Positions 6,216 through 42,987 of a DNA stretch of 44,832 nt are shown here, in pieces. Source of the DNA: a phage; sequence record PX055572.1; one strand, given 5' to 3'. Both the position numbers and the translations under genes were made by a program. The notes under the pieces are model-generated. The model was not told the origin of the DNA and did no database searches. It saw only the letters and a program-made list of their open reading frames with translations. How positions within the stretch are numbered: the first letter of the stretch is position 1; every line of letters starts with the position of its first letter.

Positions 6216-6488
6216 ACTATTTATTTACGTATTCCAGTTATTCCACCGAATTGTAAATGTTGGAATAAACTATTCGAATAGTTGACTTTTCACTGAAAAT
6301 ATGCTAAGCTCCACCTGAGCTTGTGAAGTATGAACAAGCGACCGCGGCGCGGGCAGGTAACGGAGCGGGACGTAAGTCCTGAGTGTAGTTACGCTGACGC
6401 GTTCGGAAGGGCCATACTCTATTGCTTGTGTAAAAAGTAACTGGTTTACTGAGATTACGCCGTTTCTATGTTTAAATGATAAGGACTA

Positions 6489-28796: not shown

Positions 28797-29084
28797 CTAA
28801 CTATAATAGTTCGCTATTAGGGTGTCAACCTGTTTGAACGAACCAACTACAAAAACATTTGCACCACGCTTACGCATCCGCTCGTGCTCTCGTAACTGGT
28901 GCGGGTCAGGCTTCGTGCTTTCGTCTTTCTTCACCTCGACGAACCAGACGATGCCGCCAGGGAGAATTACCAGCAGGTCGGGAGCGCCGGAACGCCCCTC
29001 ATACACTATCTTACGAACGAGGCCACCAATGGCCTCGAATCGGTCTTTTGCGTATTTCTGTATTTTGCCCTCAGGCGTACTCAT
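28797..29084 (-). CDS. VRR-NUC domain nuclease
   Basis: PD-(D/E)xK-type core GAPDLLVILPGGIVWFVEVKK; ATG 29084 with SD GAGGGG (ORF track starts at upstream GTG). Confidence 0.6.
   Translation of the reverse strand: MSTPEGKIQKYAKDRFEAIGGLVRKIVYEGRSGAPDLLVILPGGIVWFVEVKKDESTKPDPHQLREHERMRKRGANVFVVGSFKQVDTLIANYYS
28800..28828 (-). promoter_or_regulatory. Promoter A: TTGACA-N17-TATAGT with palindrome in spacer
   Basis: As transcribed: TTGACA CCCTAATAGCGAACTAT TATAGT; between VRR-NUC gene and ORF 28575..28766. Confidence 0.6.
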
Positions 29085-39892: not shown

Positions 39893-40039
39893 TGTTCAAT
39901 AGTTTGGGATTTTACTGAGTGACTTACGCTGCTACACAGCAGCGTATCATTTTTCTCATTTTTGTTCTATTTCACCAAACGCAACAATCGAAGCGACTAT
40001 TGCAGGAGATGCAATAATACAAACACCAATAAAATTTAC

Positions 40040-40447: not shown

Positions 40448-40647
40448 CTACATTACTTTTCATCTGGGTGCTGTCCGCGGGCCAGATGCAACTGGCGGCA
40501 GCAGAAACGTTTTACTCGATGGAGGCGTGCCAGTCAGCGGCACGCGCTGCAGAGAACGCGCACTTTCTGTTTCAGGGCGACAAGCCCAACGATTCAGAGG
40601 TACGCGCTATCTGCTCACCTAAGAGACTTGGTAAACAGGAGAAGTGA
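40444..40647 (+). CDS. Small secreted protein (signal peptide)
   Basis: MTTLLFIWVLSAGQMQLAAA hydrophobic leader with AxA-type site; ATG overlaps upstream stop. Confidence 0.4.
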   Translation: MTTLLFIWVLSAGQMQLAAAETFYSMEACQSAARAAENAHFLFQGDKPNDSEVRAICSPKRLGKQEK

Positions 40648-40925
40648 TTATGGTTCGGAAATATGAGGTGCGAGGGACTGAATTAGGCGGGGATGCGTTC
40701 TATGAGGATTGGGTTGAGGTCGTTCGCTACGAAGACTACGAGGAACTTGAGCGTAAGTTCAAAGAACTCATGGCGTGGCGTGTGCAGATACTCAATGACG
40801 CTTTCGACTTTTTGACGCGGGCAGAAAAAGCGGAAGCCGAGTTACAGAAATACAAAGACCAGTACCCTGATTACGTCGAGTGCGCGAACTGTGGGTCAGT
40901 TACACATGTGGAAGGGGTGGAGTGA
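40644..40925 (+). CDS. Small hypothetical protein (YEDY-motif paralog A)
   Basis: VVRYEDYEELERKFKEL shared with next ORF. Confidence 0.4.
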   Translation: MIMVRKYEVRGTELGGDAFYEDWVEVVRYEDYEELERKFKELMAWRVQILNDAFDFLTRAEKAEAELQKYKDQYPDYVECANCGSVTHVEGVE

Positions 40926-41152
40926 TGGTACAGAGATACTTATTACAGGGTGGTTTAATAGGGCCGCACGATGAAGGTGATTGGGTAGGTTACGAAGACT
41001 ACGCGAAACTCGAAGCCGAACTTCTGGAAATAAAAGCCGCAGCCCGTTGTCTTGTGCGAGAAGCGAGTAAGGTGTATAGCGACTATAGTGACGTTATAGC
41101 GCCTGAGTTTGTAGACCAGCAAACCATATACGAACTGGGCATTCTGCTATGA
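40925..41152 (+). CDS. Small hypothetical protein (YEDY-motif paralog B)
   Basis: WVGYEDYAKLEAELLEI; ATG overlaps upstream stop. Confidence 0.4.
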   Translation: MVQRYLLQGGLIGPHDEGDWVGYEDYAKLEAELLEIKAAARCLVREASKVYSDYSDVIAPEFVDQQTIYELGILL

Positions 41153-41442
41153 GCCTATCAACTGACATCCTGAAACGAAGCGGCCTTGCGCCGCTGTCAC
41201 CGAGAGCGAAGACACGTATACACAAGCGTCGCCGTAACGTGCTGTACCCAGAGATACAAGAACGGCGTAAAGCTATCCGCGCCTGTGGATTCCAGAACGG
41301 GAAGGCCGTTAACCTCGGTGAGTTTAAAACACAGGAACGCGCAGCTATCGCTAATCGGTTATTTAATTACTGGAAATCGCTGGGATACGATGATATTCCA
41401 TCGAAACCGCAGAGACGACAATACATCTGGCGTCATAAATAA
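41149..41442 (+). CDS. Basic hypothetical protein
   Basis: 97 aa, Arg/Lys-rich. Confidence 0.4.
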   Translation: MSLSTDILKRSGLAPLSPRAKTRIHKRRRNVLYPEIQERRKAIRACGFQNGKAVNLGEFKTQERAAIANRLFNYWKSLGYDDIPSKPQRRQYIWRHK

Positions 41443-41472
41443 ACCGTTATTAAGATAATTCCTAACCGTGGT

Positions 41473-41512
41473 ATCCTCCAGTTACTGCATACTTAATACG
41501 CACCTGGAGGAT
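41473..41512 (+). promoter_or_regulatory. SD-sequestering stem-loop upstream of holin-like gene
   Basis: ATCCTCCAG (41473-41481) pairs with CTGGAGGAT (41504-41512), burying the GGAGG SD; TTG start at 41518. Confidence 0.45.
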
Positions 41513-41517
41513 TCATC

Positions 41518-41826
41518 TTGGATAAATTTACTGAAACAGTGACGGGGTGGCTTCTCGCTGCCGCACTGGTCGGTGGATTGGTCGGACTAAGGCAACATAA
41601 AAAGTCTATATCCGGGCCGATTGACGGACTGGTATTTCTTCTCACCGGCTTCGCGTGCGCCATTTTCGGCGCACCTCTTGCCGCTCAATGGTTTGGTATT
41701 ACTGGCGAGCGCGAGATAGCTGGCCTCGGATTCATCATTGCCATTCTCTGGATGCCTATCTATTCCCGCCTTTCTGGCATCGTATCGGGCGGCGATATTG
41801 CCCGCCCAGGAGGACCGCATGACTGA
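41518..41826 (+). CDS. Holin-like membrane protein (three predicted TM segments), TTG start
   Basis: Three hydrophobic segments; TTG start with SD GGAGG sequestered in a 9-bp stem; immediately upstream of second membrane protein and lysozyme. Confidence 0.45.
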   Translation: MDKFTETVTGWLLAAALVGGLVGLRQHKKSISGPIDGLVFLLTGFACAIFGAPLAAQWFGITGEREIAGLGFIIAILWMPIYSRLSGIVSGGDIARPGGPHD

Positions 41827-42091
41827 GCTATTCTGGTTTGTCGTAATGCTTTCAATGGGCGCTTCGTCCCTGTTCAACGTGTATAACGAACACGTGGACG
41901 ACGGGCTGTTCGGGCGTGTGCTTTATATTCTGACTGCTATTGTCTGCGCCGCCGGATGTATCCACCTGTTACAGGGCAGCATGTCACCGACGCTGCCTGA
42001 GACATTAATCACATTAGTTGCGCTGCGTCAGATTCGTCAGGCGTGGCTGTCGTACGGAGGACATAAGCGTGTCTCGAAACATTTCAGATAA
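41819..42091 (+). CDS. Two-TM membrane protein (holin/antiholin-like)
   Basis: ATG 41819 with SD AGGAGG; two hydrophobic helices; overlaps both neighbours. Confidence 0.45.
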   Translation: MTELFWFVVMLSMGASSLFNVYNEHVDDGLFGRVLYILTAIVCAAGCIHLLQGSMSPTLPETLITLVALRQIRQAWLSYGGHKRVSKHFR

Positions 42092-42557
42092 TGGCATCAA
42101 ATTCACCGCCGCGTTCGAGGGATTCCGCGGAACCGCGTATCGCGCTACACCGAACGAGAAGTACCTTACGATTGGGTATGGTCACTACGGGCCGGACGTT
42201 AAGGCGGGGCAGACCATCACACCGGGACAAGGACTCCTGTTACTTAATCGCGATATGGCTAAAGCCGTAGCTGCGGTTGATGCGGCAGCGCACCATTCAC
42301 TGACACAGGCACAGTTCGACGCTGTGTGTGACCTGGTCTACAACGCAGGCGCTGGCGTGATTGCCGCTACCACGGGCACAGGTAAGGCGCTGCGTTCTGG
42401 TGACATCGCGACGCTGCGGGCTAAGCTGACACTGTTCATCAACCAGAACGGCAAACCGATACTTGGACTGCGTCGTCGTACCGCCGGTCGTCTGGCGCTG
42501 TTCGACGGTAAACCGTGGCAGGAGGCTGAGGCTATCGGGCGCGCGGTGAAAGGTTGA
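42069..42557 (+). CDS. Endolysin, lysozyme-like
   Basis: N-terminal AAFEGFRGTAYRATPNEKYLTIGYGH resembles phage lysozyme catalytic region; GTG start with SD GGAGG 8 nt upstream (ORF track starts ATG 42018); followed by strong terminator. Confidence 0.65.
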   Translation: MSRNISDNGIKFTAAFEGFRGTAYRATPNEKYLTIGYGHYGPDVKAGQTITPGQGLLLLNRDMAKAVAAVDAAAHHSLTQAQFDAVCDLVYNAGAGVIAATTGTGKALRSGDIATLRAKLTLFINQNGKPILGLRRRTAGRLALFDGKPWQEAEAIGRAVKG

Positions 42558-42621
42558 CACATAAGACTAATCCGACGATACTTAAATCACCTCCTGTTCC
42601 ATCCCTCTGCTCTCCAGTTTT

Positions 42622-42656
42622 ATCCCGGCCCTGACCCAGCCGGGATTTTTTTTTAT
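42622..42656 (+). terminator. Strong intrinsic terminator after lysozyme gene
   Basis: CCCGGC-cctgaccca-GCCGGG followed by ATTTTTTTTT. Confidence 0.7.
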
Positions 42657-42676
42657 CTATTTTCTGTAATGACTAG

Positions 42677-42705
42677 TTGACTATTACCTACGACCCTATT
42701 ATATT
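42677..42705 (+). promoter_or_regulatory. Promoter F: TTGACT-N17-TATATT
   Basis: Located after the lysozyme terminator, 34 nt upstream of ATG 42739. Confidence 0.5.
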
Positions 42706-42738
42706 TACTCCATCGACAACGAGAACGGAGTAGAGAAG

Positions 42739-42987
42739 ATGAGTAACGTACAGACAATCGCAATAACCGAGGAACTTGAAGCCAAATGTATCGCATGGAC
42801 TATGGGTAATGACCCGGTTGCTATGCGTAAATTTCCAATGAAAATCACAGACATCGAAGCATTCAAAGATGCACAACTGATGGCACGCATCGCCGTTAGT
42901 AACCTGAGCAATAGCATCCCTGCGGACGCGTTCTGGTTCGCTGCAATGCAGACCCTGAAGGCCGCTTATGCAGGAGAGAAGAAATGA
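42739..42987 (+). CDS. Hypothetical protein
   Basis: 82 aa; SD GGAG; downstream of promoter F. Confidence 0.4.
   Translation: MSNVQTIAITEELEAKCIAWTMGNDPVAMRKFPMKITDIEAFKDAQLMARIAVSNLSNSIPADAFWFAAMQTLKAAYAGEKK

Follow-up and report, generated by a model that had tools for sequence, protein, structure and literature searches.

A conserved leader hairpin predicted to sequester the Shine-Dalgarno sequence of a TTG-initiated holin-like gene in Kagunavirus

The rate at which a holin is synthesized determines the time of host lysis. Sequestration of the Shine-Dalgarno (SD) sequence of a lysis gene in a leader hairpin is an established principle, known from gene S of phage lambda and gene e of phage T4. 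In T4 the genes e, soc, 49 and I-TevI carry a hairpin which sequesters the ribosome-binding site (RBS) on early read-through RNA and which is bypassed by a late promoter located in the 5' half of the hairpin, as was shown experimentally (McPheeters et al. 1986, reviewed in PMC3014915). In lambda a stem-loop upstream of S, 'sdi', limits access to the GGGGG SD and partitions the starts between Met1 (antiholin) and Met3 (holin) (bioRxiv 10.1101/2025.05.14.654169). Here we analyzed a stretch of 44,832 nt (sequence record PX055572.1, the whole of which is called the window), a complete genome of a Kagunavirus (Guernseyvirinae; an E. coli phage) that is circularly permuted relative to Escherichia phage VB_EcoS-Golestan. 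A hairpin at the head of its lysis cassette contains the SD of a holin-like gene starting with TTG, and the Kagunavirus lineage represents a new example of the principle. We tentatively favor the prediction that this hairpin is a cis-acting translational gate with a promoter inside it. The elements concerned are the following:

41473 to 41481, plus strand: 5' arm of the stem, ATCCTCCAG, with an anti-SD-like CCTCC
41482 to 41503, plus strand: loop of 22 nt; as part of a gate it would hold the predicted 5' end of the RNA (about A41484) and the 5' untranslated region
41504 to 41512, plus strand: 3' arm of the stem, CTGGAGGAT, which contains the SD
41506 to 41511, plus strand: SD, GGAGGA, with a 7-nt spacer to the TTG, a normal SD spacing
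41518 to 41826, plus strand: holin-like gene 1, 102 amino acids (aa), TTG start, matching phrog_2359 'holin' from residue 1 (E 2.4e-32)

A preliminary description of this DNA had claimed a perfect 9-bp stem across a 22-nt loop, with a GGAGG buried in it 9 nt upstream of the TTG. Direct reading and a listing of inverted repeats both showed the arms to be 100% complementary and the loop to be of the length claimed, and the GGAGG (41506–41510) indeed lies within the 3' arm, upstream of the start codon. The distance needs correction, as 7 nt (41511–41517) separate the two.

The hairpin was found in the minimum free energy as well as in the centroid fold of 41443–41560. In isolation (41470–41515) it showed a folding free energy (dG) of -15.4 kcal/mol with z = -3.4, and 0.1% of 1000 dinucleotide shuffles were equally stable, while for the wider fold, 41443–41560, z was -1.58 only. 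Perfect inverted repeats of at least 9 bp with a loop of 3–30 nt occur six times in the window compared to 4.0±2.1 in shuffled sequences. A 9-bp repeat alone is therefore unsurprising and its significance must come from its position on the SD and from conservation; these two do raise the hairpin above chance. Scanning 41300–41700 against Rfam yielded no match at E <= 1.

We determined the cost of opening the SD by folding positions -70 to +35 around every annotated start of Golestan (77 genes). The SD of holin-like gene 1 was predicted to be the costliest of all, requiring 12.5 kcal/mol (rank 1 of 77) at a median of 4.0 kcal/mol. In the window the value ranged between 9.7 and 12.1 kcal/mol depending on context, with 12.1 kcal/mol in a long RNA, and dropped to 2.8 kcal/mol when the 5' end of the RNA was placed at 41482–41486. 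The stop codon of the upstream gene lies 31 nt 5' of the 5' arm, and a ribosome terminating there is presumably too distant to melt the stem. We consider it quite probable that the hairpin lowers holin translation on RNAs containing both arms.

The start codon and the holin-like nature of the gene, as given in the preliminary description, were supported. TTG 41518–41520 is the first ATG, GTG or TTG after the in-frame TAA at 41494, and none of 96 Kagunavirus-type sequences (32 leader haplotypes) departs from it, though their holins diverge to about 80% aa identity. Homologues show ATG-GAT-AAG (MDK...) where the window has TTG-GAT-AAA, and those of Dhillonvirus (about 45% identity), Pectobacterium phage Wc4-1 and KW1E_UTAR align from residue 1 (M-D/N/H-K) and start with ATG. 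The GTG at codon 8, which is the annotated start in the RefSeq record of RP180, was rejected, since it has no SD, is replaced by GTA in one relative (L108) and is not where the homologues align their M-D-K. Being invariant and aligned with the homologous starts, the TTG is thus the start and has been retained by selection. In EcoPhCCP1 the annotation of holin 1 includes a 123-nt upstream extension; T41494A abolishes the in-frame stop in this phage. For annotators, the start to be used is the TTG, neither the downstream GTG nor an upstream extension. In E. coli UUG is a canonical but weaker and rarer start codon, reaching 10–100% of AUG (bioRxiv 10.1101/063800). As regards the product, the match to phrog_2359 is accompanied by three hydrophobic segments and by the position of the gene as the first of a holin-holin-endolysin cassette.

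The region of about 1.4 kb around the hairpin matched 166 phage records, the majority of them Kagunavirus, and 41150–42560 shows 94.8% identity to Golestan. We assessed diversity in 22 relatives with the same upstream gene, and it drops sharply over one interval:

41448 to 41543, plus strand: conserved island, comprising the cassette leader and the first ~8 codons of holin-like gene 1

Nucleotide diversity (pi) is 0.016 in this island and zero across 41478–41537, while the third codon positions of the genes beside it reach 0.218 (upstream gene) and 0.356 (holin gene). The island is retained where a different gene, coding for an HslV-like protease, lies upstream. This gene is inserted just 5' of the holin leader in a Kagunavirus subset and in Jerseyviruses (L006, L089, L090, L094, L136). 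Its TAA stop lies within a conserved small palindrome (GGATAAttCC; window 41456–58; region 41443–41465), which indicates that the leader is a recombination joint travelling with the holin.

Within the hairpin, the 96 relatives showed 2 types of substitution in the stem versus 12 in the loop (binomial P = 0.017). The only substitution in the 5' arm in 30 haplotypes is A41480G, converting A-U to G·U on at least three loop backgrounds. In the 3' arm of intact genes the only change is T41505C, giving A·C in a single metagenome contig (L097). T41512C is confined to the Jerseyvirus VT223, which retains no more than a frameshifted remnant of the gene. In this Salmonella phage (L092) positions 401–595 hold a Kagunavirus-type leader with the first ~23 holin codons, frameshift-fused into a 48-aa open reading frame (ORF) upstream of its own Jerseyvirus holin; the terminal stem pair and the TG of the candidate promoter described below are both lost. 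The 12 substitution types of the loop fall into 9 of its 22 columns and belong to minority lineages throughout. Loop and first 7 codons hardly vary, and a CGTG-n-T just 5' of the 5' arm is invariant except for the 'n'.

Some of the loop substitutions lengthen the helix. In the group of L011, EcoPhCCP1 and SHAK7693, T41482G turns the T41482·C41503 mismatch into G-C; in the group of LSPA1, PK1 and TU03, C41503A makes T-A and C41501T adds an A41484-T41501 pair. These two lineages are the most diverged ones, and their helix reaches 11–14 bp with dG between -19 and -23.6 kcal/mol. In the diverged Salmonella-phage lineage, with 4–6 loop changes, the helix is kept and lengthened. As far as can be judged from sequence comparison, the helix-lengthening substitutions support a folded nucleic-acid strand over a protein-binding palindrome. 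Pairing is further supported by the G·U change on three backgrounds, by the conversion of a mismatch to a pair in two lineages, and by complementary but differing arms in other genera.

In related phages, namely Dhillonvirus, KW1E and Jerseyvirus, SD-like purines are also located in the 3' arm of a hairpin and are predicted to cost 10–16 kcal/mol to open. Dhillonvirus EP23 shows AGTCCCAGTGAG and CTTACTGGGACT separated by 6 nt and followed by T5–6 and an ATG start, and L086 has a compensated CCCC/GGGG version of the arms. KW1E_UTAR shows TCCCCGGA and TTCGGGGA separated by 7 nt, followed by T8 and ATG. In the Jerseyviruses Ent1, Shelanagig and VT223 a 12–13-bp hairpin with GGAG in its 3' arm and T5 precedes the GTG start of a distantly similar holin (MDDKYLWL...), and the GenBank annotation places the RBS within the annotated terminator. 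The leaders of Kagunavirus and Dhillonvirus can be aligned (TAATT..CGTGnTAT..CCAGT..CTTA..CTGG..T-rich..[A/T]TGGATAA). The Kagunavirus element appears to descend from a terminator hairpin; it would have kept the SD pairing, lost the clean U-tract and gained a long loop. The location of the SD within a stem is lineage-specific and does not extend to the holin family at large. In more distant members, from Pectobacterium Wc4-1, Erwinia RF1, Pseudomonas Amjad_SA and Edwardsiella eiAU-183, a hairpin or terminator lies upstream of the gene but the SD is free.

The invariant CGTG-n-T overlaps a candidate promoter, which consists of:

41469 to 41477, plus strand: candidate extended -10, TGgTATCCT, overlapping the 5' arm
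41450 to 41455, plus strand: -35-like hexamer, TTAAGA, matching TTGACA in 4/6 positions, 16 nt upstream of TATCCT; weak

TG 41469–70 and T41472 are invariant in all intact genes, 41471 (the 'n') being polymorphic for G and C. With a rough sigma-70 weight matrix TGgTATCCT scored 9.1, which places it among the top 0.042% of window positions, and in Golestan all five intergenic plus-strand TGnTAnnnT sites are located upstream of plus-strand genes. The homologous position in Dhillonvirus reads TGaTATAGT, a better match, which is not forced by the stem because it lies mostly outside it. In KW1E, TTGACC-17-TACTAT ends one base before the hairpin. In Kagunavirus, Dhillonvirus and KW1E alike, transcription is predicted to start at the 3' end of the 5' arm, from a purine 7 nt downstream of the -10, and for RNAs beginning there the SD opening cost in the three lineages is 0.6–3.7 kcal/mol compared to 11.7–15.9 kcal/mol.

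A gate built from these elements would work as follows. Read-through RNA from the upstream small genes, like any other RNA with both arms, would have its strong SD CUGGAGGAU paired with the anti-SD-like AUCCUCCAG, so that the 30S ribosomal subunit could not load and no holin-like protein would be made. Productive mRNA would come from the weak host sigma-70 extended -10 promoter TGgTATCCT at 41469–41477. RNA synthesis from it would start in the loop, at about A41484, so that the 5' arm would be missing from these transcripts and the SD would be free on an AU-rich leader of ~34 nt. The conserved TTG would keep output modest even on the short mRNA, resulting in slow accumulation of the holin. This would be the logic of T4 gene e (lysozyme) operated by host RNA polymerase. 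We infer formation of the hairpin and a block of initiation in vivo, activity of the promoter, and a dependence of lysis timing on either of them.

The invariance of the loop, of CGTG-n-T and of the first 7 codons, together with the optimal initiation region, fit an embedded promoter better than a throttle. Somewhat more tentatively still, we predict that a host sigma-70 extended -10 promoter in the 5' arm of an ancestrally terminator-type hairpin is common to Kagunavirus, Dhillonvirus and KW1E-like phages. Read-through RNA would be terminated or silent and only transcripts born in the hairpin would make holin, a T4-gene-e-like gate which would have evolved in siphophages relying on host RNA polymerase and would insulate the lysis clock from early transcription.

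Several observations weigh against a gate with an internal promoter. The -35 is poor and varies at positions 41452 and 41453 (TTAAGA, TTAGGA, TTCGGA), the -10 matches in 4/6 positions only, and a separate sigma-70 scan does not report the TGgTATCCT site. The ATCCT of the -10 is dictated by the complement to GGAGGAT; the 'free' matches comprise only TG and T41472, a coincidence of about 1 in 64 at a fixed position. The equivalent hairpin in the sister genus, Jerseyvirus, is a canonical terminator with no promoter detectable to bypass it, and a bypass is therefore not general. Concerning the pairing itself, no compensatory change on both sides was seen in the 96 Kagunavirus-type sequences, a comparison of the loop with only the 5' arm yields P = 0.073, and the 3' arm is in any case under constraint as the SD.

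A constant throttle on holin synthesis, as suggested in the preliminary description, is the alternative that survives best, and we regard it as possible, if doubtful. All holin mRNA would carry the full hairpin, ribosomes would load only when the stem breathes and the TTG would lower initiation further, leading to slow holin synthesis and delayed lysis with no internal promoter involved. The stem, the occlusion of the SD and the TTG are real and conserved, and the helix-lengthening substitutions in two lineages agree with it. Jerseyvirus, with its 12–13-bp hairpin, GGAG, GTG start and no bypass promoter, shows that the combination of a weak start and a buried SD recurs. The lambda S stem-loop, which limits access to the GGGGG SD, offers a parallel, as the rate of holin translation sets lysis time (bioRxiv 10.1101/2025.05.14.654169), and UUG is among the weaker canonical starts (bioRxiv 10.1101/063800). 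However, a throttle leaves the near-invariant loop, CGTG-n-T and first 7 codons unexplained, and the same applies to a consensus GGAGGA, an ideal 7-nt spacing and AU-rich unpaired downstream codons at an intentionally weak site. A barrier of 9–12 kcal/mol combined with TTG would also be expected to give very low output of a protein required in quantity, and with the upstream stop 31 nt away there is no upstream ribosome able to melt the stem.

It is unlikely that the hairpin is a weakened intrinsic terminator, a remnant of the Dhillonvirus, KW1E-like or Jerseyvirus terminator which attenuates transcription of the lysis genes and pairs with the SD as a by-product. Canonical terminators do occupy the homologous or analogous position in EP23 (12 pairs, T5–6), KW1E (8 pairs, T8) and Jerseyvirus (12–13 pairs, T5), and the Kagunavirus tail TTCATCTT aligns with the T-run of Dhillonvirus. 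However, a terminator scan of 40500–42800 found none, the loop has 22 nt, the U-tract is interrupted (4–5 T in 8), and selection kept the exact complementarity to the SD and the TTG, not the U-tract. Loop, tail and the missing scan call also led us to reject the hairpin as a canonical intrinsic terminator of the kind present in EP23, KW1E and Jerseyvirus.

Other readings of the island are less probable again: a DNA palindrome bound by a regulator, a leader upstream ORF (uORF) that opens the stem when translated, or RNase processing within the AU-rich loop. They could account for the conservation of loop and flanks beyond the needs of a stem, and GTG 41468, located in the invariant CGTG, does open a 24-codon ORF across the hairpin. 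Against protein half-sites, the inward extension of the helix and the G·U substitution favor a folded strand. The TTAGGATAATTCCTAA palindrome shows no covariation, all four allele combinations at 41453/41465 being present. Neither the loop nor this palindrome recurs elsewhere in the genome, and both were rejected as a repeated operator or promoter. The uORF was rejected: nearly every substitution in it changes the encoded amino acid, stop codons cut it short in the LSPA1/PK1 group and in RP180, and it spans just 2 codons in EP23. The Rfam scan provided no match for these readings. A repeat that matches the SD by accident, with conservation due to recent shared ancestry or to recombination at a module boundary, is very improbable: the expected frequency of 9-bp inverted repeats, the unremarkable z of the wider fold and the character of the island as a recombination joint with differing upstream genes would agree with it, but not the sharp diversity trough between divergent flanks, the helix kept and lengthened in the diverged Salmonella-phage lineage, the recurrence of the architecture in four lineages with differing arm sequences, or an SD predicted to be the most occluded in the genome.

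The hairpin is located at the head of a cassette in the order holin-like gene 1, holin-like gene 2, endolysin. The neighboring features are:

41149 to 41442, plus strand: upstream gene, 97 aa, phrog_9632, function unassigned; its transcripts would run into the hairpin
41819 to 42091, plus strand: holin-like gene 2, 90 aa, ATG start, phrog_2508 'holin' (E 4.7e-34), overlapping gene 1 by 8 nt
42069 to 42557, plus strand: endolysin, 162 aa, probable GTG start, PF00959 Phage_lysozyme (E 4.6e-27), overlapping gene 2 by 23 nt
42623 to 42654, plus strand: intrinsic terminator ending the lysis cassette, TCCCGGC-9 nt-GCCGGGA then T9, a 7-bp GC stem read from the sequence

Each cassette gene has a GGAGGA 5–7 nt ahead of its start. 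That of holin-like gene 2 (41809–14) is predicted to be nearly free, with an opening cost of 2.5 kcal/mol, and that of the endolysin (42056–61, 7 nt upstream of GTG 42069) requires 3.6 kcal/mol. GTG 42069 is most likely the start of the endolysin; in Golestan (L039, 41444) the RefSeq start is a downstream TTG. Holin-like gene 1 shows the features by which holins are recognized, i.e. a small protein with at least one transmembrane segment, membership in a holin family and an endolysin nearby (PF00959, two genes downstream). The 'holin' labels in database records are predictions throughout, and in the literature on these phages we found no functional test of the phrog_2359-type protein family. 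Pfam and NCBIfam gave no significant match for the two holin-like proteins and the upstream 97-aa protein. The latter contains a GKAVNLGEFKTQERAAIANRLF stretch which by eye is similar to DNA-binding motifs of the AP2 type.

A run of small genes precedes the cassette. The nearest terminator-like site upstream is at 39925–46, and the scan found none between the upstream genes and the hairpin. The same scan missed the terminator at 42623–42654, as its 9-nt loop is beyond the loop-length limit. A strong promoter-like site, TTGACT-17-TATATT (42677–42705), follows this terminator, and another promoter-like sequence, TTGACA-17-GATACT (42554–42582), lies shortly ahead of it, overlapping the 3' end of the endolysin gene. 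Rz-like spanin genes are located ~9 kb from the holin-endolysin cassette (~36 kb the other way round the permuted genome). Upstream of them lies a promoter-containing repeat of ~75 nt (window 6282–6357, TTGACT-17-tgcTAAGCT, -10 at 6305), which in Golestan (L039; 5000, 37622) is duplicated in the divergent early region with the common downstream block ctgagcttgtgaagtatg. On the minus strand three identical consensus-grade sigma-70 promoters, TTGACA-17-TATAGT, with -10s near 28805, 32493 and 35222, face the leftward replication genes. They obtained the top three weight-matrix scores and are probably a repeated set of promoters for early or middle expression.

Kagunaviruses are under development as therapeutic agents against uropathogenic and K1 E. 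coli. Should the holin indeed be gated or throttled by the hairpin and the TTG, latent period and burst size would be expected to respond to a few defined point mutations, for example in the 5' arm, from TTG to ATG, or from TG to CC at 41469–70. If true, this would also explain how lysis genes can occupy the last place in an operon that looks early and yet not kill the host prematurely. The papers that we found on Kagunavirus, Guernseyvirinae and Dhillonvirus are genome descriptions, one of which gives predicted promoters and terminators only, and we found in them no study of the hairpin or the conserved TTG and no transcript data. What is gained is a well-conserved and easily tested example of a known principle.

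Compared to its closest relatives in position, the hairpins of Jerseyvirus (Ent1, Shelanagig), EP23 and KW1E_UTAR, the element of the window stands likewise ahead of a distantly related M-D-(D)-K...W-L holin. It shares with them an SD-like GGAG or GGGA in the 3' arm and with Jerseyvirus a non-ATG start (GTG there). In contrast, these phages have loops of 6–9 nt and tails of T5–T8, making canonical terminators, whereas the window has a 22-nt loop and an interrupted T tract.

With lambda S the locus shares the type of gene, a holin gene, the sequestration of the SD in a short stem just upstream of the start and the initiation rate as a lever on lysis timing. In the window the stem, at 9 bp, is longer and its loop measures 22 nt, the gene starts with TTG and the Kagunavirus holin family is unrelated (phrog_2359, no significant Pfam match). 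A dual start as in lambda S was rejected, since codons 1–3 read TTG GAT AAA and the next possible start is the GTG at codon 8 with the defects described above.

From T4 gene e the locus differs in the promoter, which is a gp55-dependent TATAAATA in T4 and a candidate weak host sigma-70 extended -10, TGgTATCCT, in Kagunavirus. Kagunavirus is furthermore a siphovirus with no known late sigma factor, and the gated gene is a holin, not an endolysin, and starts with TTG. Membership in the T4 e type, as predicted here, hinges on the candidate promoter. In both cases a lysis gene has its SD within a helix on long transcripts, and as in T4 a promoter-like element of Kagunavirus overlaps the 5' strand of this helix, the predicted opening cost dropping from 12.1 to 2.8 kcal/mol once the 5' arm is absent.

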